Below are positions 6,909 through 63,911 of a stretch of 64,000 nucleotides of DNA, one piece after another. Made by a program: the position numbers and the translations under genes. The notes beneath the pieces were generated by a model. The model was not told the origin of the DNA and ran no database searches. It saw only the letters and a program-made list of their open reading frames with translations. This DNA comes from Candidatus Iainarchaeum sp. (GTDB lineage Archaea > Iainarchaeota > Iainarchaeia > Iainarchaeales > UBA10219), in contig JAGVWE010000006.1 in assembly GCA_018304425.1 (NCBI GenBank), forward strand, positions 67,175-131,174, in the 5' to 3' direction. How positions within the stretch are numbered: the first letter of the stretch is position 1; every line of letters begins with the position of its first letter.

Positions 6909-7231
6909 AAGGCGACGTGGCCGTCGTACCGTTTCCTTTCTCCAACCTCGCCCAGGCCAAGCGGCGCCCAGCCCTGGTATTGGCCGTACTGAGTGGCGAC
7001 GACCTCATCCTCTGCCAAATCACAAGCAACGCCAAATACGACCAGTACGCGGTTCCGCTGCTTGCCAGCGATTTCCAACGCGGGGGGCTCGCGACCGCCA
7101 GTTTTATTCGGCCAAACAAACTGTTCACGGCTGACAAGGCATTAATCGTCTACAAGGTTGGCACGGCATCCAAGAAGAAACTGCAGGAAGCGGTTGACCA
7201 GGCCGTCAAGACCCTTAAAGGCGAGACCTAA
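6893..7231 (+). CDS. PemK/MazF-family endoribonuclease toxin
   Basis: GDVAVVPFPFSNLAQAKRRPALVL... SH3-like barrel motif typical of MazF/PemK; 112 aa. Confidence 0.7.
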   Translation: MEGLVKGDVAVVPFPFSNLAQAKRRPALVLAVLSGDDLILCQITSNAKYDQYAVPLLASDFQRGGLATASFIRPNKLFTADKALIVYKVGTASKKKLQEAVDQAVKTLKGET

Positions 7232-7246
7232 CCAGGGGAAAAACCA

Positions 7247-21483: not shown

Positions 21484-22197
21484 ATGGGCCTATCCATGGA
21501 CCTGCAAACCCTGATTCTCTGCGGGGGGAAGGGCACCCGCATGGGCCCCTCGAATGGCTCGCCCAAGCACATGCTGGAAGTCGGCGGCAAGCCCGTGCTC
21601 TGGCACCTCATGAAATCCTATGCCCACCACGGCTTCAAGGACTTCGTGCTCTGCCTGGGGTATAGGGGAGAGGCCATCCGCAGGTATTTCAGGCATGAAC
21701 GGCAGTGGAACATCGAATTCGTGGACACGGGCCTGGAAACGAACACAGGCGGCAGGGTGAAACGGGCCAGGCCCTACATCGAGGGCGAAAATTTTTTCTG
21801 CACGTATGGGGACGGCTTGTCCGACGTGGACCCCGGAAAACTGCTGGCCTTCCACTTGCGGCATGGAAGAACCGCGACCGTGACCGCCGTGCGGCCGGCC
21901 AGCCAGTTCGGCTTGCTGGAAATCAACGGCCGAAACCACGTTACCGAGTTCGTGGAAAAGCCGGTGCTCGACCACTGGATCAACGGCGGCTTCTTCGTCT
22001 TCGGCAAAAAGGTCTTCAAGTACATCCAGGACAACGAGGTGCTGGAGCGGCAGCCCTTTGAGCGGCTGACCCAGAAGAAGGAGATGATGGCGTTCAAGCA
22101 CAAGGGATTCTGGGAGTGCATGGACACCTTCAAGGACTACATGAAGCTGAACAGCTTGTGGGAAACCGGGAAAGCCAAGTGGAAGGTGTGGCCGTAG
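21484..22197 (+). CDS. rfbF: glucose-1-phosphate cytidylyltransferase
   Basis: LILCGGKGTRMGP...KHML, ...TGGRV..., characteristic RfbF/DdhA length and C-terminal motifs (FWECMDTFKD). Confidence 0.85.
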   Translation: MGLSMDLQTLILCGGKGTRMGPSNGSPKHMLEVGGKPVLWHLMKSYAHHGFKDFVLCLGYRGEAIRRYFRHERQWNIEFVDTGLETNTGGRVKRARPYIEGENFFCTYGDGLSDVDPGKLLAFHLRHGRTATVTAVRPASQFGLLEINGRNHVTEFVEKPVLDHWINGGFFVFGKKVFKYIQDNEVLERQPFERLTQKKEMMAFKHKGFWECMDTFKDYMKLNSLWETGKAKWKVWP

Positions 22198-23169
22198 ATG
22201 GCCGGGAAAAACTTCTGGCAAGGACGACAGGTGCTGGTCACGGGAGCGGACGGCTTCATCGGCAGTTGGGTGGCCAAGGGCCTCCTCGAACAAGGCGCCC
22301 AGGTGCGAACCATCGTGCGGCAGCCCGGGCTTGCCTGCTCCATGGATGCCCTGGGCATCCGGGAAAAGCTGGACGTGAAACCCGGCGACATCACCGACTA
22401 CAAGGCCGTGGAAACGGCTTTTAACGGGGTTGACAGCTGTTTTCACCTGGCGGCCCAGGCCTTCGTCGAGCAAGCCAACAGGAACCCCCTGCCGACCTTC
22501 GAGTCCAACATCAAGGGCACGTGGAACATCCTCGAAGCGGCAAGGAAGGGAGCCGGCGTGGAACGGGTCATCGTGGCCTCCTCGGACAAGGCCTATGGCG
22601 TGCAGAAAAAGCTGCCCTACACCGAGGACAGTCCCCTCCTGGGAAGGTTCCCCTATGACGCCTCCAAGGCCTGCGCGGACGTACTCGCGCAAGGCTATGC
22701 CACCAGCTATGGCTTGCCGGTCTCGATCACGCGGAACGCCAACACCTTTGGGGGCGCCGACCTGAACCTGAGCCGCATCGTGCCCGGCGTAATCAAGTGG
22801 GTGCTGCACAACGAGGTTCCAGTCATCCGCAGCGATGGCAAACCAAAGCGCGACTACGTGTACGTCAAGGACATCGCGAACGCGTACCTGCTCCTGGGAG
22901 AAAACCTGCACCGCCGGGAAGTCCGGGGGAACGCTTTCAACTTCGGCTCGGGAAAGCCAGTGAGCGTGCTGGAGTTGTTCACGCGCATCATCCGCTTGTG
23001 CGGCAAGAAAGTCAAACCCCACATCCTCAACGAGGCGAGAAACGAAATCCCCGCGCAGTGGCTCTCCAACCGGAAGGCAAAGAAAGTGCTGGGCTGGAAA
23101 CCCCGTTACTCCCTTGACCAGGGGCTGCGGGAAACCATTGACTGGTACAAGGCCTATTACCGGTTGTGA
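22198..23169 (+). CDS. rfbG: CDP-glucose 4,6-dehydratase
   Basis: FWQGRQVLVTGADGFIGSW N-terminus typical of RfbG/DdhB; YDASKACAD (YxxxK); immediately follows rfbF. Confidence 0.8.
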   Translation: MAGKNFWQGRQVLVTGADGFIGSWVAKGLLEQGAQVRTIVRQPGLACSMDALGIREKLDVKPGDITDYKAVETAFNGVDSCFHLAAQAFVEQANRNPLPTFESNIKGTWNILEAARKGAGVERVIVASSDKAYGVQKKLPYTEDSPLLGRFPYDASKACADVLAQGYATSYGLPVSITRNANTFGGADLNLSRIVPGVIKWVLHNEVPVIRSDGKPKRDYVYVKDIANAYLLLGENLHRREVRGNAFNFGSGKPVSVLELFTRIIRLCGKKVKPHILNEARNEIPAQWLSNRKAKKVLGWKPRYSLDQGLRETIDWYKAYYRL

Positions 23170-23184: not shown

Positions 23185-24117
23185 CTAGCGGCGGTAGCGC
23201 AGCTTCCATCCTGTCTTGGTGTCGGCCTGGCTGAAGGCCGCGGCCGCCATGGCCAGGCCTGCCAGCACCCACCACCAGAAAAAGCCGAGAATTGCTTTGA
23301 ACCGATGGACGCGGGGCAACTGGCTCAAGCCATACCCGAACAACGGCCCATAGAAACCGGCCAGGCTCGCCTTATACTGGCCGTATAACTGGTTCACTTG
23401 GCGTTTGGCGAGGAAGCCGCGCTTGCGTTGTCGGAAGTAATCCATCCACCCAATGCGTTCCCAGCAGACCTTGAAGTAGGGCCGGCTTTCGGGCTCGAAG
23501 GTGAGGACGTCGAAGCCGTTGGCCTGGAGCTGGTACAAGCGCTCCGCGTCATCGGCCAGGGTTTGCTGCGCGCCGATGGCGCTCTTGCGGAAAAAGTTCA
23601 CGAAGAACGGATAGGCCGGGTTGGGGCTGACCACGTCCTTGCCCGCGCGCTTTTCGACGAAACGCCGGTAGCGGAACTCGGCGAGGAACAGGGTGTTCCA
23701 GGCATCCCCCAAAAAAAGAAGGTCCTTGTTCTCCCGCATGCGTTGCGGGGTGTAGGTCGTGGAATACCAGTCGCCGAGGCCCCCACATTTTGGGTCGGCG
23801 AAAAGCGTTACCAGTTTCCGGAACTCCTCCGCCGAGCAGTCGAACACCCAGTCGGCGTCGTGCACGCAAACGATTTCGTGCCGGGCCAGGGACACCAGTT
23901 TCTCCATGACCTGGTGCTTGCCTTGCCGCTCGCGGAAAACCACCGTGTCAGCGAAGGAAAAGCCGCGCACGATTTCTTCGGTGCCATCCGTGCAGCCGTC
24001 CAGGCCCACCAGGACCTGGAGGGAGGGAACGCTTTCCCGCAGCTGCGCGAGGCGGCGCAGGGCGTGGGCGATTATTTTTTCCTCGTTGTGCGCGGGAATA
24101 AGGAAGCTGACGCTCAT
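23185..24117 (-). CDS. family 2 glycosyltransferase with C-terminal TM region
   Basis: SFLIPAHNEE...LVGLDGCTDGT...VHDADW. Confidence 0.7.
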   Translation of the reverse strand: MSVSFLIPAHNEEKIIAHALRRLAQLRESVPSLQVLVGLDGCTDGTEEIVRGFSFADTVVFRERQGKHQVMEKLVSLARHEIVCVHDADWVFDCSAEEFRKLVTLFADPKCGGLGDWYSTTYTPQRMRENKDLLFLGDAWNTLFLAEFRYRRFVEKRAGKDVVSPNPAYPFFVNFFRKSAIGAQQTLADDAERLYQLQANGFDVLTFEPESRPYFKVCWERIGWMDYFRQRKRGFLAKRQVNQLYGQYKASLAGFYGPLFGYGLSQLPRVHRFKAILGFFWWWVLAGLAMAAAAFSQADTKTGWKLRYRR

Positions 24118-24665
24118 TTTCCTTCACGTCCCACGATCCAGGCAACGGCGGCCGGCAAATCCGCGCACTCGAAGTCGGCCCTGGCTTCGGCCTGACAATC
24201 CAGGCCAGCGTGCCCGGTCGCCTCTTTTCCGGCCAGGATGTCGCGGGCCATGTCCCCCACCAGATAGGAAGCCCGTAAATCGAGGTCATGCGCCTTGGCT
24301 GCCTGTTTTAGCATGCCTGGCTTGGGTTTGCGGCAATCGCAGTCCAACCGGTATGCTTCGACTTCGGCCAGGGTGGAGTGCGGGCAGTAGTAGAAGCCAT
24401 CGATTTTCCCGCCCTCCCCTGCCACCAGCTTCCGGAGGCGGTCGTTGATGGCCCTTACCTCTTTTTCCGTGCACAGGCCGCGCGCCACCACGGGCTGATT
24501 CGAGACGACCAGCACCTTGAAACCGGACTTATTGAGGACGGCAATGGCTTTGCCTGCGCCGGGCAGCAGCCGGAGCGCGGCCGGCTCGTGGAGGAGGTGG
24601 ACTTCCTCGTTGATGGTGCCATCGCGGTCCAGGAAAACAGCGCGATTCAAGACGGCGCGGTTCAT
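24114..24665 (-). CDS. gmhB: D-glycero-D-manno-heptose 1,7-bisphosphate phosphatase (HAD-IIIA)
   Basis: AVFLDRDGTIN motif I, SNQ, CDCRKPKPGML Zn-binding/motif III region. Confidence 0.8.
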   Translation of the reverse strand: MNRAVLNRAVFLDRDGTINEEVHLLHEPAALRLLPGAGKAIAVLNKSGFKVLVVSNQPVVARGLCTEKEVRAINDRLRKLVAGEGGKIDGFYYCPHSTLAEVEAYRLDCDCRKPKPGMLKQAAKAHDLDLRASYLVGDMARDILAGKEATGHAGLDCQAEARADFECADLPAAVAWIVGREGK

Positions 24666-25220
24666 CTACATCAATTCCCTGATGCGTTGCATCATCAGGT
24701 GGTCCAGCACCAGGTGCAGGTCCTCGCAGGGGCCGTACTCGTGGCTGGGCACGACGATGCTCAGGTCGGCCAACGGCTTCAACTTGCCGCCGCCGAAACC
24801 GGTCCAGGCGACGGTCTTCGCGCCCCGTTCCTTGGCGTACTCCACGGCTTTCAAGACGTTGGGGCTGTTGCCGGACGCCGAAATCGCGAGGACCACGTCC
24901 CCTTTTTGCAGGAAATTCTTCAAGGGCTCGACGAAAATGTCTTCATAGCTTGAATCGTTGCCCCACGCGGTCATCAGGGGAACGTTGTCGTTCAGGCAGA
25001 TGGCCTTGAAGCGCGGCTTGCCGGGGAGGAGGCAGCCCTTGTTCAAGTCGTTGGCGACGTGGGAGGCGGTGGCCGCGCTGCCTCCGTTGCCGAAGACGAA
25101 GACCTGGTGGCCTGCCTGGCAGGCCTGCAGCAGGGCCTGGATGCAGGCATCGATGTCCTTGCAGGGCAGGCCGTCGATGACCTTTTTCAGGTTCTCTAAA
25201 TAGGCTTGGGTTGAAACCAT
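24666..25220 (-). CDS. gmhA: phosphoheptose (sedoheptulose-7-phosphate) isomerase, SIS domain
   Basis: VFGNGGSAATASH, ISASGNSPNV SIS motifs. Confidence 0.85.
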   Translation of the reverse strand: MVSTQAYLENLKKVIDGLPCKDIDACIQALLQACQAGHQVFVFGNGGSAATASHVANDLNKGCLLPGKPRFKAICLNDNVPLMTAWGNDSSYEDIFVEPLKNFLQKGDVVLAISASGNSPNVLKAVEYAKERGAKTVAWTGFGGGKLKPLADLSIVVPSHEYGPCEDLHLVLDHLMMQRIRELM

Positions 25221-25222
25221 GT

Positions 25223-26197
25223 TCAGTCCTCCTCGTAGACGATGCGGCTCCCCCCTTCTTCCAGGGAGAACGGCGTTTCCTTCAACGGCCTTAACGCCTG
25301 CCGCAAGGCGTTTTGCCGGCGTTTCTCACAGTAGAAGGCCAGGAAGCCCCCGTTGCCCGAGCCACAGATTTTGCCGCCCACCGCGCCGGCCTTGAGGGCC
25401 CGGGCATAGTATTGGTCAATCAAGGGGTTGGAGACGTTGGCGGCCAGCCGCTTCTTGAGCAGCCAGTTCTTGTGCAAGAGGTTCCCGAACCGCGTGAGGT
25501 CATCGGCGTGCAATGCATCATAGGCGTCGTAGGCCAGCGCCTTCAGGAGGTGCAGGAACACGAGGTTTTTCTTCGTGTTCTTTTTCTGTTTGGCGAGCAC
25601 GCTCTTGGAGTCGCGGGTGAGGCCGGTGAAGAAGAGCAGGAGGTTCGCGTCGAGTTCGCGCAGGGAGTTCTTCGAGCAGCGCACGGGATGCACGGAAACC
25701 GTTTCATCGGGGTTGAATTCGAAGAGGTTGAGGCCGCCGAAGGCCGCGGCGTACTGGTCCTGCTTGCCGATGGGTTCGCGGAGCAGGCCGATTTCGACGT
25801 GGCATGCCTGTTCGGCGAGGGACCGCGCTGGCTTTTTTTTCCCCTGGTAGGCGTGCAGGACGTTGAGGAGGCCCACGGCGAAGGAGCTGCTGCTGCCCAG
25901 GCCCGAGCCCTTGCTGGGGATGTCGGCCAGGGAAAGCAGTTCGATGCCGGAGTCGATGCCCGCGGCCTTCATGCAGGCGTTGAACAACGGGTGCCTGACC
26001 TGCTGGCGCCGGTCGATGATTTCGGTCTGCGAGTACCCGAGGCGGATGCCTTTCTCGAAGCGCTTGTTGGCGATGAGGTAAACGTATTGGTCGATGGCCG
26101 TGCTCAGGACCGCGCCGCCGTGCCTCGCGTAATAGTCTTTGAAGTCGGTGCCGCCACCGCAAAAGCTTATCCTCAAGGGCGTCCTACTGGCGATCAA
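25223..26197 (-). CDS. hddA: D-glycero-alpha-D-manno-heptose 7-phosphate kinase (GHMP kinase)
   Basis: RTPLRISFCGGGTD N-terminus, PSKGSGLGSSSSFAVG GHMP ATP-binding motif. Confidence 0.8.
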   Translation of the reverse strand: MIASRTPLRISFCGGGTDFKDYYARHGGAVLSTAIDQYVYLIANKRFEKGIRLGYSQTEIIDRRQQVRHPLFNACMKAAGIDSGIELLSLADIPSKGSGLGSSSSFAVGLLNVLHAYQGKKKPARSLAEQACHVEIGLLREPIGKQDQYAAAFGGLNLFEFNPDETVSVHPVRCSKNSLRELDANLLLFFTGLTRDSKSVLAKQKKNTKKNLVFLHLLKALAYDAYDALHADDLTRFGNLLHKNWLLKKRLAANVSNPLIDQYYARALKAGAVGGKICGSGNGGFLAFYCEKRRQNALRQALRPLKETPFSLEEGGSRIVYEED

Positions 26198-26903
26198 GGC
26201 CGAATTCCTCCTTTACCTGCTTATACCGTTCGAGGGTGCCGATGTCCCGCATATAGTCTGTTGAAACAAAGCCATATAATGGTTTACTGGCCCCCTTTGC
26301 GGCTGCCTTCACGAGGGCGGGGAAGACGTCGCGGCCGAAGTCCAGGGGAGTGGCATGGGGAATGCCCTTGAAGATGGCGGGTTCCAGGACGTAGCAGCCC
26401 GCATTGGTGAGACCCCCGAGCACGGCAGCTGCCTTGCGGCCGAAGAACGTGATGCGGTTTTGGGAGTCGAGTTCGGCGAGGTCGCTGTCTGCCGGGTGGT
26501 CGGAGGGGTGGAGGACGAGCGAGGCCAGGCCCCCGTGTTCCTGGTGGAAGGCGATGAGCTTGGAGTAATCGAGTCGGCTGGCGACGTCGCCGTAGACGAC
26601 AAGGAAGGTTTCCCCTGGCTGGGATTCGAGTTGCCGGACGCTGCCCGCGGTGCCGAGGAATTCCGGGTCCACCGAGTACGTGATGTGGGCCTTGAACCGT
26701 TCCCCGTAGCCGAAGTAGTCGGAGATTTTTTCGCGCTGGTGGGAAACGCATAAGAGGAGGTCTTGGATGCCGTGCCGGACCAGTCCTTCCACGAGCCACT
26801 CAAGCAGGGGCTTGCCGGCCACGGGCAGCATGACTTTGGGCGTGTCCTGGGTCAGGGGCCTCAACCGTTCCCCCTTTCCTCCCGCGAGGATGACGGCTTT
26901 CAT
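26184..26903 (-). CDS. hddC: D-glycero-alpha-D-manno-heptose 1-phosphate guanylyltransferase
   Basis: MKAVILAGGKGERLRPLT sugar-1-P NTP-transferase motif; overlaps hddA by 14 nt. Confidence 0.75.
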   Translation of the reverse strand: MKAVILAGGKGERLRPLTQDTPKVMLPVAGKPLLEWLVEGLVRHGIQDLLLCVSHQREKISDYFGYGERFKAHITYSVDPEFLGTAGSVRQLESQPGETFLVVYGDVASRLDYSKLIAFHQEHGGLASLVLHPSDHPADSDLAELDSQNRITFFGRKAAAVLGGLTNAGCYVLEPAIFKGIPHATPLDFGRDVFPALVKAAAKGASKPLYGFVSTDYMRDIGTLERYKQVKEEFGLDRQ

Positions 26904-28507
26904 GGCTTTGCCTCCGGCCGGGCGAAGGCCTGCAGGAACCGGCCGACGCGGCCGATGCGGGCGAACAACTGCCCGTCCTGCCGGGGAAAGGGCTTCAGGT
27001 AGAGGGAAACCGCGGCGTAAACGCCGGCAGCCACCAGGACGAGGAACAGGAGGCTGGACAGGGAATGGACCTGGTCCCTGAACAGGTAAACAAACAAGCC
27101 CATGCCCAGGGTGGCCGCGAGGGTCGCACTCAAATCGCGGAAGGGGATGCGGAGCCGGACTTTTCGCCGGGTGAGGAAGAACTCGAGGAGCATCATGACC
27201 AGGAAACCGGCCGCGTTCACCAAGGCAACCGTGAGGATGCCTTGCCCGGACTGGAGGAGGAGGACGTTGGCCGCGGTGGTGACGAGGAAAACCGTTTTCG
27301 CGTAGAGCCCGATTTCCGGGCGTTCAATCGTGTTGTAGATGTTGACGATGGAGTGCCGGAAGGAAAGCAGGCCGTGGGAGACGGCTGCCACGATGAAGAC
27401 GTTGACGGCCACCAGGTATTTGGGGTCGAACACGAATTGAATGGTTTGGGGCGCGAGCAGGACGAGGCCCAGCAGGGTGGGGAAGACGAAGAAGGCCGTG
27501 AACCGCGAATAGGCTTGGAAGAAGTATTCGAGTTCGCCGAGGTTCTTGGACTGGGTGAAGCGTTTGACGACCGAGGGGAACACGACCAGGGCCGAGACCA
27601 CGGCAGGGGAATAGGCCATGAGCACCTGGGGCATTTTCACGCCGAAGGAGTACCAGGCGATGGCGGTTGTGCCGGCGAAGTAGCCGATGAGGAGGTTGTC
27701 GATGGTGAGGTTGGTGACGAGTTCGCCGAGGTAGCTGAGCTGGCTGAAGGCCCCGTACCGTAGCACGCGCTTGAAGTCCGAGAACTTCGCGCCCAGGTCG
27801 GGGAGGTCGAGGAGCGCGGATTTCAGGGAGAGGAAGCCTATCGAGGCCGTCAGGAGGCTGGAGGCGAGGATGACGGCCAGTACGGTGCCCAGGGGCCCAA
27901 CCGGCCCGGTGAGCCCAGTCGACCCCGTCAACCCGGCCAGCCCGGTCACGGAGAGGCCTTGGGAGAGGGCCAGGAACGCGAACACGAGGACGAACCCGGT
28001 GTAAAACACGCGCATGACGGCGCGGGGCTTTTGCCGGAGCAGCGCGTTGAGCGTCCAGTCGAATACCCCGGTGAGGAGTTGGACGAAGTTGATGAAGGCG
28101 AAGAGCCACACGTAGAGGGGGTGGAAGCCCGTGCTCTTGAACACCGCGTTGAAGACGCCTGGGAACAGGCCCAGCAGCACCAGCACCAGCAACCCGTTGG
28201 CAAGGGTGAGCTTGACTGAAAAGCCGAAGAGGTCCTTGGCGGAGCGGTAGTTTTTTTTCGCCATGTAATCCGGGATGAACCGGGCCAGCGCGTAGAGGAC
28301 CGCTCCCGAAACCAGTCCGAGGAAGGTGACCGTGCTGAAGAACAACGAGTAAATCCCGAACTCGTCCACGGGCAGGAACTTGATGAGGACCAGGGTCACG
28401 AGGAACTGCAGGAGGATGCCGGCGTTGGCCGCCACGTAATTGAACAAGGCGCCTTTCGCCGTGCGCTGGTACAAATCGTCGAACTCGCCGTCCATGTCTA
28501 GTCTCAC
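26900..28507 (-). CDS. MOP-superfamily oligosaccharide flippase (Wzx-like)
   Basis: 535 aa, ~14 TM helices, polysaccharide-biosynthesis-protein architecture. Confidence 0.7.
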   Translation of the reverse strand: MRLDMDGEFDDLYQRTAKGALFNYVAANAGILLQFLVTLVLIKFLPVDEFGIYSLFFSTVTFLGLVSGAVLYALARFIPDYMAKKNYRSAKDLFGFSVKLTLANGLLVLVLLGLFPGVFNAVFKSTGFHPLYVWLFAFINFVQLLTGVFDWTLNALLRQKPRAVMRVFYTGFVLVFAFLALSQGLSVTGLAGLTGSTGLTGPVGPLGTVLAVILASSLLTASIGFLSLKSALLDLPDLGAKFSDFKRVLRYGAFSQLSYLGELVTNLTIDNLLIGYFAGTTAIAWYSFGVKMPQVLMAYSPAVVSALVVFPSVVKRFTQSKNLGELEYFFQAYSRFTAFFVFPTLLGLVLLAPQTIQFVFDPKYLVAVNVFIVAAVSHGLLSFRHSIVNIYNTIERPEIGLYAKTVFLVTTAANVLLLQSGQGILTVALVNAAGFLVMMLLEFFLTRRKVRLRIPFRDLSATLAATLGMGLFVYLFRDQVHSLSSLLFLVLVAAGVYAAVSLYLKPFPRQDGQLFARIGRVGRFLQAFARPEAKP

Positions 28508-29787
28508 CTCCCGATGCCCTTGTACCGGATGCCGGCGGCAAGGATGCCTTCCTTGTCCAGGGCATTGCGGGCATCGAAGACCGCTTTCACGTTCCAGGCT
28601 TTCAGTTGCCGGGGGGAAAGGCTTTTGACGAAGGAACGGTGGTTGGTGGCGAGGAGGACGCAGTCGGCTCCCTGCACGGCTTCTTCGAGGGAACGGACAT
28701 TGCTTTTGCCGGGGACGAACGGGTCGAAGGCCTTGAGGGACTTGTTCTTGGCGGACAACAAGCGCAGGATTTCCAGGGCCGGGCTCTCCCGCACGTCATC
28801 CACGTCCGCCTTATAGGAAAGGCCTAAAAGGGCCAGGTGGGCGGTTTCAACGGGTTTGCCGAGGCTGGCCAGCAGTTGCTCGACGAGGGAAACCGCGTAG
28901 ACGGGCATGGCGTTGTTCAGGGAGCGCGCCAGCGAGACAAACCGGTGCTCGAAACCCTTTTCCCGTGCGCGCTCGATGAGGTAATACGGGTCCTTGGGGA
29001 TGCACGTTCCCCCGACTCCCGGCCCGGGATAAAAGGGCATGAAGCCGAATGGTTTCGTGGAACAACCCTTGATGACCTCCAAGACGTCGATGCCGAGCTT
29101 GTCAAAGGACATCGCAATCTCGTTGATGAACGCGATGTTCACGTCCCGAAAGGTGTTCTCCATGATTTTCACGGCTTCCGCGGCCTTGATGGAGTTCAAG
29201 GGGGTTACGCTGGCCGCCAGGATTTTCCGGTAGAATTTCACGGCCTCGGTCGTCGAGTGTTCGTCGACGCCGCCGACGACCCGTGGGATGTTTTCAAGTG
29301 CGAACTCCTGGTTGCCGGGGTCGATGCGTTCCGGGCAGTGCACGAGCCCGAAATCCTTTCCGGCCCTGAGGCCGCTTTGCTCGAGCAGGGGTTTCACGAT
29401 TTCATCCGTGACCCCGGGATACACCGTGGACTCGATGACGACCAGCATGCCTTTCCGGAGATGCCGGGCAAGGGTCCGGCAAGCCGATTCCACGAAGCCC
29501 AGGTCGGGGTGCTTGTCTTGCGTGACGGGGGTTGGGACGCAGACCAGGACGATGTCCGCCCCTGAAAGCGCGAGCCCCGCGTCACCGGTGGCAAGCAGTT
29601 TCCCTTTCACGGCCTTGACTGCCTTGATTAAAGCGGGGTCCCGGATGTGGCTCTTGCCTTGATTGACCTGGTCTACCACCCTGGGATTGAGTTCAAGGCC
29701 ATGGGTTTTGAAGCCCTTTTTGGCTACCAGGCAGGCCACCGGCAGCCCCACATACCCCAGCCCCATGACAGCCACGGTTTTCGGCAT
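28504..29787 (-). CDS. nucleotide-sugar dehydrogenase (UDP-ManNAc/UDP-GlcNAc 6-dehydrogenase-like)
   Basis: VAVMGLGYVGLP, catalytic GGTCIPKDP (Cys) motif. Confidence 0.8.
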   Translation of the reverse strand: MPKTVAVMGLGYVGLPVACLVAKKGFKTHGLELNPRVVDQVNQGKSHIRDPALIKAVKAVKGKLLATGDAGLALSGADIVLVCVPTPVTQDKHPDLGFVESACRTLARHLRKGMLVVIESTVYPGVTDEIVKPLLEQSGLRAGKDFGLVHCPERIDPGNQEFALENIPRVVGGVDEHSTTEAVKFYRKILAASVTPLNSIKAAEAVKIMENTFRDVNIAFINEIAMSFDKLGIDVLEVIKGCSTKPFGFMPFYPGPGVGGTCIPKDPYYLIERAREKGFEHRFVSLARSLNNAMPVYAVSLVEQLLASLGKPVETAHLALLGLSYKADVDDVRESPALEILRLLSAKNKSLKAFDPFVPGKSNVRSLEEAVQGADCVLLATNHRSFVKSLSPRQLKAWNVKAVFDARNALDKEGILAAGIRYKGIGR

Positions 29788-29877
29788 AAAATCCCGTTAA
29801 CCCCCAAATAACAGCAGAATAAGCTAAATAATCATTGCATATATTTTTAAAGGCGTAAACCGGACAATCGTGAAACC

Positions 29878-31380
29878 ATGCCCCTGCCCCGCTTGCACCC
29901 TGGACTCGTTCCCTTGATTGCCGCCGCGGCAACCGTGTTGCTTTCGCTGGGGTTCCTGCAGGCCCGGCCGTTCCCCGACGAAGGCATCTTCGTGACCGGC
30001 GGCTGGCTGGCCAGCCAGGGCCTGCTGCCGTACCGGGACTTCTTCGACATCCACAGCCCCGGCATTTTCTTCGTGCTGGGAAGCTTTTACCGGCTGCTTG
30101 GCTCCGGCCTGGGCCTCGACCTGGCGGGCATGGACTTCCTCTTGGCAGGCCGCTTGCTGGCCGTGCTCGTGAACGCGGCCACCCTCCTAGCCATCTATTT
30201 CCTGGCCCGCAAAATATTCGACGCCTGGACGGGAGCCCTGGCCGTGGTCCTGCACGCGGTCTGGCTGCCGGTCTTCTACGGTTTCTGGGCGGTGATTGAG
30301 CCGTTCACGGCCTTCTTCTCGGCGCTGTCCGTGCTGGCCCTGCACCGGGTGGTGGCCGAAAAACGACGCGAGCCCCTGGACCTGCTCTGGTTGGGCCTCG
30401 CCCTGGGCTTCACCCTGGTGTTCAAGCAGACGCTCCTGGTCTTCGTGGCCGCCATGGTCTTGGTTGCCGCGGCCTACCTCATCGCCTACCGGCAGACCCG
30501 GCACCTGGTTTCCCTCAAGACCCTGGCAGCCGTGGCCGGCTTGGCGACGCCGCTCCTGCTGGTGTTGTTGCCCTATGCCTTGTCCAATGCCTTGCCGGCC
30601 CTCATGCAACAGACCCTTTCCTATGCCGTGGAAAACGCGGGGCTGTTGTCGAACCCAGGCCTCAAAGCCGAGTACCTGGCGGTGCCCCTGCTGTTGTTCT
30701 TTTTCACGCCACTGGGCTTTTACTGGGCGGCAAGGAAGGGCTTGAACCCCTTCGACTCGGCATTCTGGGAACGCGTCATCCTGTTTGCCTGGCTGCTTTC
30801 CACCCTGCCCAACCTCTTTCCGTTCGTGGGCTGCTGCCACCATCTCCTGCCCTTGTCTCCGCCGGCGGCCATCATTTCCGCGGGCGTGGTCATGAAAATC
30901 ATGGGCAACCATTATCCGCGGCTGAAAAAAGTGGCCTTCCTCGCGTTGTTGCTGGTCCTGGCCTTGAACGCCTTCGTCGCCCTCCGCTTGGTGGGCAAGG
31001 ACGAGTTCAAGGGCGTGAAAGAAGTCGCGGCCTTCCTCCAGGCGAATTCCACGCAGCGGGACCGGATTTTCGTGGTGCACGATGACCCCGAAGTCTACTT
31101 CCTCGCCCAACGGCTGCCGGCCACGAAATACATCTACTATCCCTTCCTTTCACCGCAGGGATTCCAGGGGATGCAGGCCGAAATCAAGGCGGACCTCCAG
31201 GCGTTCAAACCCTGGTTTGTGGTGGACTTCTCCGGCACCGGTGAGCCCTTGAACCCCGCGCGGAACGCGGAAGCCGAGCAATGGGTGCTCGACGAGTACG
31301 ATAAAGTCAAGACCTTCGAGTTCGAGTCGCGCTACAACGACTACTACCGGTACGCGTACGTGTACCAACGGAAGGGATAG
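29878..31380 (+). CDS. ArnT/PMT-like (GT-C) polytopic membrane glycosyltransferase
   Basis: N-terminal PDEGIFVTGGW...LPYRDFFD motif region, ~11 TM helices, soluble C-terminal domain. Confidence 0.55.
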   Translation: MPLPRLHPGLVPLIAAAATVLLSLGFLQARPFPDEGIFVTGGWLASQGLLPYRDFFDIHSPGIFFVLGSFYRLLGSGLGLDLAGMDFLLAGRLLAVLVNAATLLAIYFLARKIFDAWTGALAVVLHAVWLPVFYGFWAVIEPFTAFFSALSVLALHRVVAEKRREPLDLLWLGLALGFTLVFKQTLLVFVAAMVLVAAAYLIAYRQTRHLVSLKTLAAVAGLATPLLLVLLPYALSNALPALMQQTLSYAVENAGLLSNPGLKAEYLAVPLLLFFFTPLGFYWAARKGLNPFDSAFWERVILFAWLLSTLPNLFPFVGCCHHLLPLSPPAAIISAGVVMKIMGNHYPRLKKVAFLALLLVLALNAFVALRLVGKDEFKGVKEVAAFLQANSTQRDRIFVVHDDPEVYFLAQRLPATKYIYYPFLSPQGFQGMQAEIKADLQAFKPWFVVDFSGTGEPLNPARNAEAEQWVLDEYDKVKTFEFESRYNDYYRYAYVYQRKG

Positions 31381-31632: not shown

Positions 31633-32322
31633 TCAGATTTTCAACCGCAACTCGACCAGGTCGGAGAGCATGCGGAGGTTGTTGAGGCCGAGCCGCATCT
31701 TAGAGCCCTCAACGTGGCCCCACTCAATGGGAATGGTTTTGAGCTGGTAGCCCTTGCGCTTGAGGCGGTACAGCCATTCGACGTCGAAAATCCAGCCATC
31801 CGAGACCAACTCATTGGCCAGTTCCCGGGCCAGGGGCCTGGAAAGGCCCTTAAACCCGCATAACGCGTCGTAAAAGCCGATGGGAAACAAGAGGTTCACG
31901 AGGAAGTTGAAGGCCTTCCCGAGCAGGATGCGGCGCAGGGGCTGGGAGACCACGATGCGCGTCCCCGGCTCCTTGCGGGAAGCCACGACCACCGGGTTCG
32001 CCTGGAGCGCGGCCTCCATCTTGTCGAGTTCCCTGGCGGGAGTGGAGCCGTCCGCGTCCATGAAGACCACACCCGCGTTTTTGGCGGCCGCGTAGCCCGT
32101 GCGGATGGCCGCGCCCTTGCCCCTGTTTTTTTCGTGGCGCAGCAGCACGACGTCCTTGCCGAGTTTTTTGACGACGTCAACCGTCTTATCCTTGCTGCCG
32201 TCGTCGACGACGATGAGCTCGACGGGGTAGGCCGCGCGCCGCTTGAAGGCCACAAGCTCGGAGAGAAAGGGCTGGATCCGGGTTTCCTCGTTGTAGGCCG
32301 GGATGATGACGGATAGCGCCAT
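31633..32322 (-). CDS. family 2 glycosyltransferase (DPM-synthase-like)
   Basis: LSVIIPAYNEE...LIVVDDGSKDKT...FMDADGST; start taken at internal Met. Confidence 0.8.
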   Translation of the reverse strand: MALSVIIPAYNEETRIQPFLSELVAFKRRAAYPVELIVVDDGSKDKTVDVVKKLGKDVVLLRHEKNRGKGAAIRTGYAAAKNAGVVFMDADGSTPARELDKMEAALQANPVVVASRKEPGTRIVVSQPLRRILLGKAFNFLVNLLFPIGFYDALCGFKGLSRPLARELANELVSDGWIFDVEWLYRLKRKGYQLKTIPIEWGHVEGSKMRLGLNNLRMLSDLVELRLKI

Positions 32323-32339
32323 GGGAATGCCCTCACACC

Positions 32340-33290
32340 TCACACCAGTTGCTGCCGGAAGTAATCAATCGTGAGCCCTAACCCCTCGTCCAGGGAAACC
32401 CTTGGCCTCCACCGGAGTTCGCGCCGGGCCTTGGAGATGTCCGGCTTCCTCCGGGTCGGGTCGTCTTCGGGCAGCGGCTTGAAAACGATTCGGCTCTTCG
32501 AGCCGGATAGTTTCCTTATTTTTTTCGCGAAGGCGAGCACCGTGAACTCGGCGGGGTTGCCGAGGTTGGTGGGCCCGGGAAACCGGGAGTTCATCAAGGA
32601 GTGGAGGCCTTTCACGAGGTCCGAGACAAAGCAGAAGGAGCGGGTCTGGCGGCCATCCCCGTAAACCGTCAGGGGCTGGCCTAAAACGGCTTGCTTGACC
32701 AGGTTCGGCACGACTCTCCCGTCTTTTAGGTCCATGCGCGGCCCATAGGTGTTGAAGATGCGCGCAATCCGGGTCTCCACCTTGAAGCGCCTCCGGTACA
32801 CCATGACCAGGGCTTCCGCGTACCGCTTGCTCTCGTCATAGCAGGAACGCAAGCCGATGGGGTTGACGTTGCCCCAGTAGTCCTCGCGCTGGGGATGCAC
32901 TTTTGGGTCGCCGTAGACTTCCGAAGTCGAAGCCTGCAGGAAGCGCGCACGGTTCCTGAGGGCAAGGTCCAGCATGTTCTTGACGCCGTACGAACCGACC
33001 AGAATGGTTTCCAGGGGCTTCTTGTAATACCCCACCGGCGAAGCCGGCGAGGCCAGGTTGTAGACTTGCCTTAGTTTCACGCCGGGCTTGAAGGGCCGGG
33101 TGATGTCCTGCTTCCTGAACCTGAACCGGGGATGGCCCAGGAGGTGCGCGATGTTCCGCTTGTTGCCGGTAACAGTGTTGTCCACGCATAGCACGCGTTC
33201 GCCTCTCGCAACCAGGTAATCGCATAAGTGGGAGCCGATGAAACCCGCGCCCCCCGAAACCAATATCCACTTCGCCTTGCCAACCGCCAT
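32340..33290 (-). CDS. uxs: UDP-glucuronate decarboxylase (UDP-xylose synthase)
   Basis: ILVSGGAGFIGSHL, ...TSEVYGDP...YDESKRYAE, high similarity pattern to UXS; start at MAVGKAKW. Confidence 0.8.
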   Translation of the reverse strand: MAVGKAKWILVSGGAGFIGSHLCDYLVARGERVLCVDNTVTGNKRNIAHLLGHPRFRFRKQDITRPFKPGVKLRQVYNLASPASPVGYYKKPLETILVGSYGVKNMLDLALRNRARFLQASTSEVYGDPKVHPQREDYWGNVNPIGLRSCYDESKRYAEALVMVYRRRFKVETRIARIFNTYGPRMDLKDGRVVPNLVKQAVLGQPLTVYGDGRQTRSFCFVSDLVKGLHSLMNSRFPGPTNLGNPAEFTVLAFAKKIRKLSGSKSRIVFKPLPEDDPTRRKPDISKARRELRWRPRVSLDEGLGLTIDYFRQQLV

Positions 33291-33291
33291 G

Positions 33292-34248
33292 TCAACGCGC
33301 CCCCCGGTGCGGCTCCCGGGCAAACCATTCCACGGTTTGCTTCAAGCCCACGTCAAAGGAATGCCGGGGCGTGAACCCCAGCAGCCGCTTGGTCTTGGCC
33401 ATGTCGGCCTGGGTGTGCAGCACGTCTCCCGGGCGGAGCGGCTGGTATTCCGGCTTCACCGAACGGCCCAGCAAGGCATTTACTTTGTCCAGTAGTTCGC
33501 GGACCTTGATGGAGTTGCCCTGGCCCACGTTGAAGACCTCGCCACAAGCCCGTTCCCCGGCCCTTAAAGCCGTTAGATTGGCATCCACGACGTTCTTTAC
33601 ATAGGTGAAATCGCGGGACTGCATGCCGTCGCCGTAGATGACGGGCGAGCGGCCTTCGAGCACGGACGAGATGAAGCGCGGGATGACCGAGGAATACTGC
33701 GAGCTGGGGTCCTGGCGTTCGCCGAAGACGTTGAAGTAACGCAGGCACACGGTTTCAAGGCCGAGGCACTCGTAAAACATGCGGCAATAGAGTTCGCCTC
33801 CCAGTTTCGAGACCGCGTAGGGGGAGAGCGGGCCGGGGAGAAGCGATTCGCCCAGCGGCATCTTTTCGGCGTTGCCGTACGCGGAGGAAGAGGCCGCGTA
33901 GACCACGCGCTGGACATTGTTTTCCTTCGCCACTTTCAGCACCGTGTAGGTGCCATCCACGTTGACGCGGTTGTATTCGAGGGGCCGCTTGAAGGACTCA
34001 GGAACCGAGCGCAGCGCGGCTTCGTGGAAGACAAAGGCGCAGCCCTTCATGGCCCGTCCCAGCGTGTCCTCATTGAGGATGTCGCCTGACTGGAAATTGA
34101 TTTGCTTCATCACGGCCGCGAGGTTCTGGCGGCTGCCCGTGGAAAGGTTGTCGAGCACGCGGACTTCAAAGCCCTTTTCGAGCAGGCCCTCCACCAGGTG
34201 CGAGCCGATGAAGCCGGCTCCCCCCGTAACCAGAACCCTTTCAGCCAT
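33292..34248 (-). CDS. NAD-dependent nucleotide-sugar 4-epimerase (WbpP/GalE-like)
   Basis: VLVTGGAGFIGSHL, YAVSKLGGE; start at MAERVLV. Confidence 0.8.
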   Translation of the reverse strand: MAERVLVTGGAGFIGSHLVEGLLEKGFEVRVLDNLSTGSRQNLAAVMKQINFQSGDILNEDTLGRAMKGCAFVFHEAALRSVPESFKRPLEYNRVNVDGTYTVLKVAKENNVQRVVYAASSSAYGNAEKMPLGESLLPGPLSPYAVSKLGGELYCRMFYECLGLETVCLRYFNVFGERQDPSSQYSSVIPRFISSVLEGRSPVIYGDGMQSRDFTYVKNVVDANLTALRAGERACGEVFNVGQGNSIKVRELLDKVNALLGRSVKPEYQPLRPGDVLHTQADMAKTKRLLGFTPRHSFDVGLKQTVEWFAREPHRGAR

Positions 34249-34249
34249 T

Positions 34250-35035: not shown

Positions 35036-35051
35036 TGGAATAACCTGTAAA

Positions 35052-36194: not shown

Positions 36195-36218
36195 GATGAC
36201 GCTCCATTACTCCCTAAA

Positions 36219-37109: not shown

Positions 37110-37122
37110 TGCTTTCCCGCCT

Positions 37123-45172: not shown

Positions 45173-45200
45173 GCCCATGGTCGGCTCCCATAGCCAAAGG

Positions 45201-60507: not shown

Positions 60508-61683
60508 ATGGTTATGGCTCAATTGGCTTTAATGACCGAGGAATACGCGGCTGCCGTGGTCGGAGCGGGTCCCGTGGGCTTGAATGCCGCCATCCAGGTG
60601 CAGAAGAACGGCTTCGACGTCGTGGTCTTGGAGGACTCCGAGGAAATCGGCCTGCCCTGCCAGTGCTCGGGCCTGATTTCGCGGAGCGGCTACGAGGGCC
60701 TGGGCCTGAAGTACGACAAGACCATCGTCAACCGCGTGCGGGGCGCCAGGATTTTCGCCCCCGACCGCACCGAGTTCAAGGTCGAACGGTTTGACACGGT
60801 TGCCTACGTCATCGACCGGCCGAAGCTCGACAAGGTCTTCGCCCGGGACGCCAAGGAACTGGGGGTCGACATCTGGCTGAACTCCAGCGTCGTGGACGTG
60901 AAGGACGGAACGGTTTTCTACAAGAACAAGGCCGGCAAAGGCGAGATGGTGAAGGCCAAGGCCGTGGTGGGCGCGGACGGAATCGTTTCAACGGTGCGGA
61001 AGTCCATGGGCATCGAAGCCCAAAAGGAGTGGTACGTGCCCGGCTACCAGATTACCGGCCGCGGAAAGTTCGACCCCGACTTCGTGGAAGTGCACTTCGG
61101 GCCCTGGGCCGACAAGTTCTTCGCCTGGGTCATCCCGGAAAGCAAGACCACGGCCCGGATTGGCTTGGGCGTCACCGGGAAGAACGCGCGCACCTGCCTC
61201 GAGCAGTTCATGGACGACCGCGGCATCAAGGCGCAGAAGCTGGACTTCCAGGCCGGTGTCATCCCGGCCGGGCCGCCGGTAACCAATCTGGTGAAGGACA
61301 ACGTCTTGCTGGCCGGGGACGCGGCGTTCCAGGCCAAGGCCACGACGGGCGGGGGAATCATGCTGGGCATCGAGGCCAGCAACCACGCCGCCAAAGCCAT
61401 CGTGGACCACTTCAAGTACAAGACGCCCCTGACCTCCTACCAGAAGCACGTGGAACCCGTGACGCGGGAGCTGGAAATCCATTGGCGCGTGCGCAGGTAC
61501 CTGAACCAGTTGAACGACGAGGACCTGAACAAGCTCTTCCAGCGCATGAAGGCCGCGGGCATGGAAAAGTTTTTGTCGGACAACGCGGACATGGACAAGC
61601 CCAGCAGTTTCTTGAAGAAAGTCGCGGGCAGCCCCAAGATGTGGATGATGCTGCCGGAGATGATTAAGTTCCTCAGAGGATAA
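60508..61683 (+). CDS. geranylgeranyl reductase-family FAD-dependent oxidoreductase (archaeal lipid saturase-like)
   Basis: AAVVGAGPVGLNAA FAD motif, ...VGADGIVSTVRK..., size ~390 aa typical of GGR. Confidence 0.8.
   Translation: MVMAQLALMTEEYAAAVVGAGPVGLNAAIQVQKNGFDVVVLEDSEEIGLPCQCSGLISRSGYEGLGLKYDKTIVNRVRGARIFAPDRTEFKVERFDTVAYVIDRPKLDKVFARDAKELGVDIWLNSSVVDVKDGTVFYKNKAGKGEMVKAKAVVGADGIVSTVRKSMGIEAQKEWYVPGYQITGRGKFDPDFVEVHFGPWADKFFAWVIPESKTTARIGLGVTGKNARTCLEQFMDDRGIKAQKLDFQAGVIPAGPPVTNLVKDNVLLAGDAAFQAKATTGGGIMLGIEASNHAAKAIVDHFKYKTPLTSYQKHVEPVTRELEIHWRVRRYLNQLNDEDLNKLFQRMKAAGMEKFLSDNADMDKPSSFLKKVAGSPKMWMMLPEMIKFLRG
61647..61671. repeat. 25-bp direct repeat copy 1 (3' end of GGR gene)
   Basis: gatgctgccggagatgattaagttc repeated exactly at 61796-61820. 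Confidence 0.7.
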
Positions 61684-63838: not shown

Positions 63839-63911
63839 TAGCCCCAAGGAGATTCGAACTCCTGTCTGCAGGGTCAGAGCCTGCCATCCTTGGCCACTAG
63901 ACGATGGGGCT
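63839..63911 (-). tRNA. tRNA-Gln (anticodon CUG), no encoded CCA
   Basis: manual fold: acceptor AGCCCCA/TGGGGCT, anticodon stem GCAGG/CCTGC with loop CTCTGAC, T-arm AGGAG-TTCGAAT-CTCCT, discriminator A. Confidence 0.7.

Follow-up and report, generated by a model that had tools for sequence, protein, structure and literature searches.

Positions 24114-26903 of the window, by which we mean the whole 64,000-nt stretch of DNA analysed, are exactly filled on the minus strand by four complete and translationally coupled open reading frames (Table 1). Pfam domains agree with the four enzyme classes named in an earlier sequence-only reading of this DNA, namely a SIS isomerase, a GHMP kinase, a HAD phosphatase and a nucleotidyltransferase, and the co-directional clustering it described is equally plain. 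The gene order it gave, gmhA-hddA-gmhB-hddC, was wrong: the genes are transcribed as nucleotidyltransferase, GHMP kinase, SIS isomerase and HAD-IIIA phosphatase (hddC-like, hddA-like, gmhA-like, gmhB-like). Together they are predicted to be the sugar-activating core of an operon of seven translationally coupled genes, a minus-strand run (29787..23185) in which adjacent genes overlap or abut. The start of the kinase gene overlaps the preceding nucleotidyltransferase gene by 14 nt, the flippase gene shares 4 nt with its neighbour at each end, and the GT2 gene overlaps gmhB by 4 nt. The cassette has a GC content of 0.62, in line with the surrounding window. The region between the operon and the divergent PMT_2 gene, presumed to act as promoter region for both units, contains TTTTTAAA, which precedes the ATG at 29878 by about 30 nt.

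Table 1. Genes and other features of the heptose-type cassette, its neighbourhood and the taxonomic markers, in window coordinates.
Feature	Position	Strand	Basis
GT2 glycosyltransferase, last gene of the operon, candidate heptosyltransferase	23185..24117	-	Pfam Glycos_transf_2
HAD-IIIA heptose-1,7-bisphosphate phosphatase, GmhB-like (predicted), 183 aa	24114..24665	-	PDB, motifs, NCBIfam
SIS-domain sedoheptulose-7-phosphate isomerase-like protein, GmhA-like variant, 184 aa	24666..25220	-	PDB, NCBIfam
GHMP-family heptose-7-phosphate anomeric kinase, HddA/WcbL-like (predicted), 324 aa, TTG start	25223..26197	-	PDB, residues, NCBIfam
Sugar-1-phosphate nucleotidyltransferase, GMPP-like, putative HddC role, 239 aa	26184..26903	-	Pfam, NCBIfam, PDB matches
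MOP/Wzx-type polysaccharide flippase, multi-pass membrane protein, same operon, 535 aa	26900..28507	-	Pfam, NCBIfam
Nucleotide-sugar dehydrogenase, first gene of the operon, 427 aa	28504..29787	-	TIGR03026
AT-rich divergent intergenic region, 90 bp, presumed promoter region for both transcription units	29788..29877	.	sequence
PMT_2 / GT39-like GT-C glycosyltransferase, divergent from the operon	29878..31380	+	Pfam PMT_2; NCBI name
Geranylgeranyl-reductase-family gene, taxonomic marker	60508..61683	+	TIGR02032
tRNA-Gln(CUG), taxonomic marker	63839..63911	-	Rfam, ARAGORN

The cassette is clustered with surface-glycan genes within this run, which is predicted to be co-transcribed. The neighbouring Wzx-like flippase and nucleotide-sugar dehydrogenase noted earlier are real. 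The flippase carries the Pfam domains Polysacc_synt_3 and Polysacc_synt as well as many hydrophobic segments, and it matches the MOP flippase and O-glycosylation Wzx families of NCBIfam (E ~1e-10 to 1e-11). The dehydrogenase reaches 431 bits on TIGR03026 (cut-off 190), its closest equivalog being the archaeal UDP-ManNAc dehydrogenase (341 bits, below the cut-off of 750). The GT2 that closes the operon has a single C-terminal hydrophobic segment (residues 275-295); a PDB search with it returned weak matches only and no informative structural relatives, and it is not detectably DPMS/GtrB-like. A DPMS-like GT2 is encoded near the operon (31633-32343) in a separate transcription unit. The divergently encoded PMT_2 protein is named glycosyltransferase family 39 by NCBI.

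A PDB search with the kinase gives heptose kinases in the first four places (3K85, 4USM, 4USK and 4N3O; E 1e-39 to 2e-42), the fifth being a fucokinase that is weaker by some 20 orders of magnitude (E 6e-19). The nearest solved relatives are WcbL, Campylobacter jejuni HddA and a Bacteroides thetaiotaomicron heptokinase; compared with these characterised enzymes the protein is about 35% identical (alignment read by eye) and shorter (324 aa, where their chains have 342-357). The residues R13, D22, S118-120, Q162 and D163, found essential by mutation in WcbL (PMC4691232), correspond to R9, D18, S102-104, Q146 and D147 and are all conserved, which points to a GHMP kinase of the HddA/WcbL type with residues for binding ATP and heptose-7-phosphate. 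HddA is also its best NCBIfam family (E 1.8e-46), and homologues 50-56% identical to it carry the JGI name hddA.

The phosphatase gives a similar picture. In the PDB it comes closest to E. coli GmhB (E 4e-30, against just 5e-11 for HisB-N), to which it is about 40% identical over 141 residues (alignment read by eye), and its best NCBIfam family is GmhB (E 7.9e-44). The GmhB-type HAD-IIIA motif set is complete, with the nucleophile and motifs II, III and IV represented by DRDGT (13-17), VSNQ (54-57), RKPKPGM (112-118) and GDMARD (137-142), and a Cys/His zinc loop by CPH...CDC (94-96, 109-111). PDB ranks and conserved residues thus place the kinase and the phosphatase in the heptose-acting GHMP and HAD subfamilies, as had been proposed, and not in other ones.

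The SIS protein matches only GmhA/DiaA-type SIS proteins in NCBIfam and the PDB; its ten best PDB matches are GmhA (E 2.5e-27), as is its best NCBIfam family (E 1.4e-34). Its residues were located by reference to catalytic and metal-binding positions of E. coli GmhA (Glu65, a catalytic residue, and His180) and B. pseudomallei GmhA (His64, Glu68, Gln175, His183). Both GmhA histidines are kept, as His54 and His174, Asp57 lies at the position of E. coli Glu65 and Glu166 at that of Gln172. The protein thus has Asp and Glu in place of the canonical Glu/Gln pair that is found in B. pseudomallei GmhA. This Glu-to-Asp and Gln-to-Glu swap is common to 28 of the 31 aligned GmhA-like genes from other loci, and no biochemically characterised protein was identified within this variant clade.

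All four cassette proteins fall below the heptose-specific curated cut-offs of NCBIfam, namely 159 bits against 600 for the kinase on HddA (NF049969), 119 against 209 for the SIS protein on gmhA (TIGR00441), 149 against 178 for the phosphatase on GmhB (PRK08942; also 123 against 150 on TIGR00213 and 78 against 250 on NF050049) and 90 against 300 for the nucleotidyltransferase on HddC (NF049965). Among the matches reported, cassette homologues from other phyla likewise score well under these cut-offs, which suggests that the models for HddA and HddC are narrow. The cut-offs of TIGR01656 and TIGR01662 are exceeded by the phosphatase.

From these family affinities and the gene context we infer substrate and product, anomer, nucleotide and all steps of glycan assembly, and conclude that the four genes probably convert sedoheptulose-7-phosphate to a nucleotide-activated heptose for a surface glycan in a DPANN archaeon. 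The GmhA-like isomerase would turn sedoheptulose-7-phosphate into D-glycero-D-manno-heptose-7-phosphate, the HddA/WcbL-like kinase would phosphorylate O1 to give the alpha-1,7-bisphosphate, and the GmhB-like phosphatase would remove the 7-phosphate. The activated heptose, with GDP as the most likely nucleotide, would then go into a surface glycan. Candidates for this step are the operon's GT2 and MOP/Wzx flippase together with the divergent PMT_2-type GT-C, and a dolichol-phosphate-linked intermediate may be involved.

The nucleotidyltransferase carries the Pfam domain NTP_transferase (PF00483, 115 bits), and its best NCBIfam family is mannose-1-phosphate guanylyltransferase (151 bits, E 2.8e-44), with HddC in sixth place (E 1.4e-25). 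In the PDB it is closest to a UGPase (8X7S), GDP-mannose pyrophosphorylases and MurU, whereas solved HddC (5XHW/6JQ8) is matched only at E ~1e-18. The name hddC given in the sequence-only reading was therefore not upheld: by none of the available tests is the protein an HddC orthologue, GDP-mannose and UDP-sugar pyrophosphorylases matching best. An enzyme of the NTP_transferase fold does stand where the pathway would call for HddC. In locus L057 and, apparently, in P0155 a related nucleotidyltransferase forms one protein with a GmhB-like HAD domain, which ties the enzyme to the same pathway.

Because the enzyme is nearer to mannose-1-phosphate guanylyltransferases than to HddC, GDP can be proposed only as a reasonable reading of the sequence. 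Characterised heptose pathways with a GHMP kinase (alpha) are not known to use any nucleotide but GTP; mannose-1-phosphate guanylyltransferases supply several of the PDB matches besides the best NCBIfam family, and many homologues are labelled as such by JGI. It is nevertheless conceivable, though rather unlikely, that the same pathway logic leads to UDP-, CDP-, dTDP- or ADP-alpha-heptose, given that the UDP-glucose pyrophosphorylase 8X7S is the best PDB match (E 9.5e-34), that MurU (UDP-MurNAc) outranks HddC, that JGI names no homologue HddC and that NDP-heptose enzymes of the beta route with relaxed NTP choice are known (PMC11573728).

A different sugar is less probable still. The cassette could activate another heptose epimer by way of the variant isomerase, or follow a mutase-independent route from fructose-6-phosphate through mannose-6-phosphate and mannose-1,6-bisphosphate to GDP-mannose, and we hold this to be quite unlikely. 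The logic of isomerase, 1-kinase, distal phosphatase and nucleotidyltransferase is not known from sugars other than heptoses. The GMPP-like nucleotidyltransferase, the sub-threshold heptose scores of all four proteins, the two active-site and metal-binding positions that differ from canonical GmhA across the cassette clade and the mannose bound in the sugar pocket of WcbL crystals (PMC4691232) would fit a different sugar; against it, heptose enzymes are by large margins the best characterised relatives of kinase, isomerase and phosphatase, and the heptose- and phosphate-binding WcbL residues Q162 and D163 are among those conserved.

The grouping of the genes is seen well beyond this contig. 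Partners within 6 kb were sought at 48 loci outside this genome, each with a gene for a kinase relative; about 30 of these loci have both a nucleotidyltransferase and a GmhA-like gene in that range, and just over 20 have a GmhB-like gene as well. The association is not due to chance: the kinase recurs with the nucleotidyltransferase and GmhA, and often GmhB, in most of the 48 loci, which are drawn from many phyla. Many bacterial phyla carry the cassette, as do at least four lineages of DPANN archaea, with DPANN loci (L007, L021, L056 and L057) that combine kinase, nucleotidyltransferase and GmhA, often with GmhB; it was seen in Micrarchaeia, Woesearchaeota/Nanoarchaeota and other Diapherotrites MAGs. 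Within the stretch of DNA examined, a locus from Altiarchaeota has kinase and isomerase only. In no case do the archaeal copies group as a single clade. The annotation is sound but fairly ordinary, the cassette being common among bacteria and other DPANN archaea.

The sequence-only reading had taken the genome to be archaeal, and this held. The proteins of the window are identical to NCBI MBS3063634-88 of a Candidatus Diapherotrites archaeon (135-kb contig), the database lineage is Archaea; Iainarchaeota, and a second MAG bears the same label, so that Candidatus Diapherotrites / Iainarchaeum is represented by two MAGs. Two markers on the contig are independent of binning. The tRNA-Gln(CUG) (Rfam, 58.8 bits; ARAGORN agrees) has an A1-U72 pair and A73, and its CCA is not encoded; A1-U72 with A73 is the archaeal pattern for this tRNA, as against U1-A72 with G73 in bacteria. 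The geranylgeranyl-reductase-family gene scores 203 bits on TIGR02032 (cut-off 159), and its named homologues above E 1e-30 are all archaeal (Diapherotrites, Bathyarchaeota, Thorarchaeota, Methanofollis), one weak Planctomycetota match ranking last. Neither rRNA nor ribosomal-protein markers were present in the window or the adjacent flanking DNA examined. That the contig is a mis-binned bacterial one with an ordinary capsule or S-layer glycan locus is very improbable: the cassette is far commoner in bacteria and most flanking genes encode generic glycosyltransferases, methyltransferases and SDRs, but the two MAGs were deposited independently, both markers are archaeal in type and the closest named relatives of the kinase (70% and 56% identical) are from Diapherotrites. 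The contig is archaeal, from a groundwater DPANN archaeon of the Candidatus Iainarchaeota/Diapherotrites.

The cassette is of a known kind, shared by bacteria and other DPANN archaea. Like the bacterial GDP-heptose route (GmhA/HddA/GmhB/HddC), it unites the same four enzyme classes in one cluster among surface-glycan genes; it differs in that the nucleotidyltransferase is no HddC equivalog and the host is an archaeon. The NDP-beta-heptose pathway of the HldE type likewise draws on sedoheptulose-7-phosphate via a GmhA and has a phosphatase of the GmhB type, but employs a PfkB/ribokinase-type kinase and a nucleotidyltransferase of cytidylyltransferase fold and yields the beta anomer, whereas the kinase here is of the GHMP family and the nucleotidyltransferase has the RmlA/GMPP fold (PF00483). 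No PfkB- or HldE-like genes were detected among the scanned ORFs of the window, and the two enzyme types of the cassette are not those of the ADP/NDP-beta-heptose (HldE) pathway.

Heptose is already known from archaea. NDP-beta-heptose biosynthetic enzymes have previously been reported from this domain (2024 work summarised in PMC11573728), and D-glycero-D-galacto-heptose is an established N-glycan component of Thermoplasma acidophilum, whose heptose glycan has been modelled on the pilus of another Thermoplasmatales archaeon (PMC11407970; PMC12448462); the two papers state no biosynthetic route for it. The view that heptose-containing glycans are rare or undescribed in archaea was accordingly half right, "undescribed" being incorrect. 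The Thermoplasmatales N-glycans resemble the glycan proposed here as archaeal surface glycans with heptose, but they contain the galacto epimer, where a manno epimer is predicted here, and belong to another phylum.

In gene content the locus partly resembles polyprenyl-phosphate-sugar three-component glycosylation, in which a DPMS/GtrB/ArnC-type GT2 acts with a flippase and a PMT/ArnT-type GT-C, in that it brings together genes for NDP-sugar supply and for a GT2, a MOP flippase and a PMT_2 GT-C. It differs in that the DPMS-like GT2 lies outside the operon, whose own GT2 is not recognisably of that type, and in a flippase of the Wzx/MOP type instead of the GtrA type. PMT_2 genes adjoin the cassette in L056 and L057 too, the protein of L057 being 31% identical over 146 aa to the PMT_2 protein of the window, and DPMS/GtrB-like GT2s adjoin it in L057 and L021.

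The segment at 24114-26903 on the reverse strand is filled exactly by four complete open reading frames, and Pfam bears out the four domain classes which the sequence-only reading had assigned to it. The gene order given there, with the isomerase first and the nucleotidyltransferase last, has to be corrected, since transcription runs from the nucleotidyltransferase through the kinase and the isomerase to the phosphatase. The cassette constitutes the middle of a seven-gene run in which member genes overlap or abut, and an AT-rich spacer of 90 bp lies between this operon and a divergent PMT_2 gene. The entire 64-kb window represents a glycan-biosynthesis island with many GT2 and GT4 glycosyltransferases, methyltransferases, five SDR epimerase/dehydratases and five sugar-1-P nucleotidyltransferases. 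The observation of the cluster stands, and its interpretation as a complete GDP-heptose pathway is partly supported.

Features of the heptose cassette and of the surrounding glycan island (window coordinates)
Feature	Position	Strand	Remarks
AbiEi/AbiEii toxin-antitoxin pair and PIN-domain gene	782-2779 and 45520-46014		
Radical SAM/SPASM protein	10881-12011	+	amid glycosyltransferases and methyltransferases of the island
Glucose-1-P cytidylyltransferase-like gene and CDP-glucose 4,6-dehydratase-like gene	21484-23169	+	convergent to heptose operon; cytidylyltransferase 257 bits, cut-off 300
GT2 glycosyltransferase	24117..23185	-	downstream of cassette
HAD-IIIA hydrolase	24665..24114	-	183 aa
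SIS-domain protein	25220..24666	-	184 aa
GHMP kinase	26197..25223	-	324 aa; TTG start; 14-nt overlap with preceding gene
NTP-transferase	26903..26184	-	239 aa
MOP/Wzx-type flippase	28507..26900	-	upstream of cassette
Nucleotide-sugar dehydrogenase	29787..28504	-	upstream of cassette
PMT_2/GT39-type GT-C transferase	29878-31380	+	divergent to operon
Co-directional run	31633-37196	-	class I FBPase, class II FBP aldolase, IspD-like nucleotidyltransferase, two SDR epimerase/dehydratases, DPMS/GtrB-like GT2
MTAP	domain from residue 253 of long ORF 43625-45172		methionine-salvage-like group (~44381-47709)
Class II aldolase/MtnB-like gene	46050-46652		same group
IF-2B/MtnA-like gene	46654-47709		same group
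1002-aa protein	52689-55697	+	weak Big, fn3 and DUF7743 domain matches; MXYO-CTERM-family match
Geranylgeranyl-reductase-family gene	60508-61683		
tRNA-Gln	63839-63911		

The kinase belongs to the heptose-acting subfamily of GHMP kinases. Its best four solved relatives in the PDB are all heptose kinases, namely 3K85 of Bacteroides thetaiotaomicron, 4USM and 4USK (WcbL) of Burkholderia pseudomallei and 4N3O of Campylobacter jejuni (E 1e-39 to 2e-42), and the next family, fucokinase, follows at E 6e-19. Assignments as fucokinase, galactokinase or mevalonate kinase were rejected due to their far lower scores. The WcbL residues R13, D22, S118-120, Q162 and D163, each of which is indispensable (PMC4691232), correspond in a HMMER alignment to R9, D18, S102-104, Q146 and D147 of the window kinase and are all conserved. 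As the kinase is of the GHMP family, the beta pathway, which proceeds via HldE, is excluded for this cassette. The phosphatase likewise falls into the heptose-acting HAD subfamily: among solved structures, E. coli GmhB ranks highest (E 4e-30; ~40 % identity as read off the alignment), as opposed to only E 5e-11 for HisB-N, and the protein exhibits the DRDGT nucleophile, motif II VSNQ, the CxH...CxC zinc loop, RKPKPGM and GDxxxD.

A kinase pattern scan of GTDB species genomes identified 48 loci, whose neighboring genes were located by tblastn with the window proteins. The nucleotidyltransferase and a GmhA-like gene lie beside the kinase in ~30 of these, and a GmhB-like gene is present as well in just over 20. 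Phyla carrying the cassette include Ignavibacteriota, Armatimonadota, Nitrospinota, Bacillota and CPR, and DPANN archaea are represented by L007 (Micrarchaeia) and L021 (Woesearchaeota). Three more DPANN loci were retrieved via named kinase homologues: L056 (Nanoarchaeota) encodes phosphatase, nucleotidyltransferase, kinase and isomerase followed by a PMT_2 gene; L057 (Diapherotrites) encodes kinase, isomerase, a GT2 and a 434-aa fusion protein with PMT_2 and GT87 genes alongside; and L058 (Altiarchaeota) encodes kinase and isomerase. This genomic context supports one shared pathway for the cassette genes. An SDR epimerase/dehydratase of ~310 aa directly adjoins the cassette in the DPANN and CPR loci L007, L013, L016, L056, L057 and L058, which hints that the NDP-heptose is modified further there, e.g., to a 6-deoxy or epimerised form; the window operon contains no internal gene of this type.

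Among solved structures, the isomerase matches only GmhA and the GmhA-like DiaA. A role as DiaA-like or RpiR-type regulator was rejected, since the protein comprises 184 aa without an HTH domain and is encoded within an enzyme cassette. It was aligned with 31 GmhA-like proteins from other loci and with E. coli GmhA, in which Glu65 is catalytic. Both GmhA histidines are retained; however, Asp replaces Glu65 and Glu replaces Gln172 in the window protein (D57 and E166) as well as in 28 of the 31 proteins from other loci (L002-L049). The canonical Glu/Gln pair is kept only in the most divergent loci, L044, L045 and L047, and is also carried by B. pseudomallei GmhA. The swap may simply relocate the carboxylate. 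The swapped isomerases constitute a distinct SIS subfamily below the TIGR00441 cut-off, for which no characterised member was found and which would provide a cheap biochemical test case. In L001, an alternative assembly of the window's own population (ENA ANAN16-1 scaffold_5905), gmhA and the neighboring SDR gene (5153-5690 and 7211-8149) are each split by a frameshift. Either pseudogenisation at the strain level or an error of assembly could account for this; an intact GmhA is encoded on 13 contigs.

The nucleotidyltransferase is the weakest assignment among the four proteins. It had been read as the heptose-1-P guanylyltransferase HddC, an identity from which the comparisons lead away: its best PDB matches are the UDP-glucose pyrophosphorylase 8X7S, the GDP-mannose pyrophosphorylases (GMPP) of plants, human and mycobacteria, and MurU, and Yersinia HddC matches at only E ~1e-18. 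Within NCBIfam, mannose-1-P guanylyltransferase is the top family, with HddC in sixth place (90 bits; cut-off, 300). At JGI, homologues of the enzyme go under “mannose-1-phosphate guanylyltransferase” or “NDP-sugar pyrophosphorylase,” never under HddC. The fusion in L057 (5505-6809, reverse strand), from another Diapherotrites MAG, joins a GMPP-like nucleotidyltransferase to a GmhB-like HAD phosphatase. It constitutes Rosetta-stone evidence that the GMPP-like and the GmhB-like enzyme serve one pathway. P0155, a 341-aa partial homologue from Owenweeksia that NCBI annotates as HAD-IIIA hydrolase, probably represents another fusion of this kind.

Profile HMMs matched the expected families for the cassette proteins except for the nucleotidyltransferase, and none of the four proteins reaches the heptose-specific curated cut-offs of NCBIfam (HddA 159/600, GmhB 149/178, GmhA TIGR00441 119/209; bits/cut-off). 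Cassette genes from other phyla likewise score well under these cut-offs, with all kinases at 146–192 bits against the HddA cut-off of 600. The models for HddA and HddC would thus appear to be narrow, so that failing them says little, and equivalog scores were rejected as a means of separating canonical from variant cassettes. Only the GmhA model does so usefully, with 112–128 for variant and 184 for a partial canonical sequence at other loci.

Based on family membership, conserved residues and synteny, we infer a four-step route. The SIS protein would isomerise sedoheptulose-7-P to D-glycero-D-manno-heptose-7-P, the GHMP kinase would add a phosphate at O1, the GmhB-like phosphatase would take off the 7-phosphate, and the nucleotidyltransferase would yield an NDP-alpha-heptose, with GDP as the most likely nucleotide. 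For the downstream steps, the GT2 of the operon, its flippase and the neighboring PMT_2 GT-C transferase suggest two options: the heptosyl residue may be transferred directly onto a lipid-linked glycan, or it may pass through dolichol-phosphate-heptose that is consumed on the outer side of the membrane. In DPANN loci, PMT_2 genes (L056, L057) and DPMS/GtrB-like GT2 genes (L057, L021) recur beside the cassette and favor the dolichol-phosphate option; this is speculative, since the operon GT2 is not recognisably DPMS-like and yielded only weak matches in a PDB sequence search. The broadest reading would place the cassette, with its 324-aa HddA-like kinase, Asp/Glu-swapped GmhA and GMPP-like, sometimes phosphatase-fused nucleotidyltransferase, in a large NDP-heptose clade for which no characterised member was found, common to DPANN, CPR and other bacterial phyla, probably via horizontal transfer, and feeding in DPANN a dolichol-phosphate-heptose and PMT_2 GT-C heptosylation of surface proteins. 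Taken as a whole, we consider this composite rather improbable.

The sequence-only reading had left room for a bacterial contig, which was rejected. The window proteins are identical to NCBI MBS3063634-MBS3063688 of “Candidatus Diapherotrites archaeon” (135,280-bp contig), a second MAG (HIH16037, HIH17173) bears the same label, and UniProt assigns them to Candidatus Iainarchaeum sp. (Archaea; Nanobdellati; Iainarchaeota). Independently of binning, the tRNA-Gln follows the archaeal pattern, in that A1 pairs with U72, A73 is the discriminator base and the gene does not encode the CCA end, and all named relatives of the geranylgeranyl-reductase-family gene above E 1e-30 are archaeal, with one Planctomycetota match in last place. 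Among named relatives of the kinase, the two closest (70 % and 56 %) are from Diapherotrites, and the cassette GC of 0.62 is in line with that of its surroundings. No rRNA or ribosomal-protein gene was found in the window, and neither these nor other core markers are present ~10 kb past its left end or ~3 kb past its right end; these flanks encode additional glycan genes as well as a TnpB-like protein and a prenyltransferase. The case for archaeal provenance is therefore strong, if short of absolute. Assemblies of this population recur in samples from both ENA and JGI; among the records is ANAN16-1_SAMN03202995, presumably, by its name, from the Rifle aquifer data set.

The origin of the cassette itself was addressed by neighbor-joining trees, both for the kinase alone and for the kinase combined with GmhA (500 bootstraps). 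Bacterial phylum clades are recovered (Firmicutes 86 %, Armatimonadota 100 %), while archaeal placement is poorly supported: archaeal monophyly appears in 0 of 500 bootstraps, and the window sequence groups weakly with other DPANN in a clade of four sequences (16 %) and with a CPR sequence (23 %). Therefore, no transfer direction is claimed, and a bacterial origin is not established. The trees fit repeated inter-domain exchange or unresolved deep divergence, and the weakly supported position alongside CPR bacteria would agree with an exchange of genes between groundwater organisms of small cell size.

Since DPANN cells are attached to hosts, their surface glycans are, speculatively, candidates for roles in recognition and attachment. 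Should the operon function as outlined above, heptose from the alpha route, so far characterised only in bacteria, would be displayed on the surface of some DPANN archaea. Such glycans had been called rare or undescribed in archaea; the latter does not hold, as the Thermoplasma acidophilum N-glycan contains D-glycero-D-galacto-heptose, which was also modelled on a Thermoplasmatales pilus (PMC11407970, PMC12448462), and archaeal NDP-beta-heptose biosynthetic enzymes have been reported (PMC11573728). In a 2020 survey that covered 303 genomes of Archaea, most of the pathways to rare monosaccharides were missing, with limits of the method pointed out (PMC7725333). Within the literature searched, the alpha (HddA) route was not explicitly reported for archaea or DPANN. 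Since archaeal glycan heptose and NDP-heptose enzymes were already known and close kinase homologues are already auto-annotated as hddA in databases, no major question is opened or closed; the gain is modest, with three enzymes named with good confidence and the nucleotide flagged as a matter of inference.

Several further features of the island were observed. The co-directional run with FBPase and aldolase genes may constitute a second unusual sugar pathway or supply sugar phosphates to the island, conceivably sedoheptulose-7-P through SBP. The genes convergent to the heptose operon suggest a CDP-6-deoxyhexose branch within the same island, and the 1002-aa protein may be a surface protein, perhaps S-layer-like, and thereby a possible target of glycosylation. 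Besides the toxin-antitoxin and PIN-domain genes on this archaeal contig, PemK and further PIN genes were called in L050, an ENA contig matching the window, and a Cas12f1/TnpB-like gene lies just past the right end of the window (L053).
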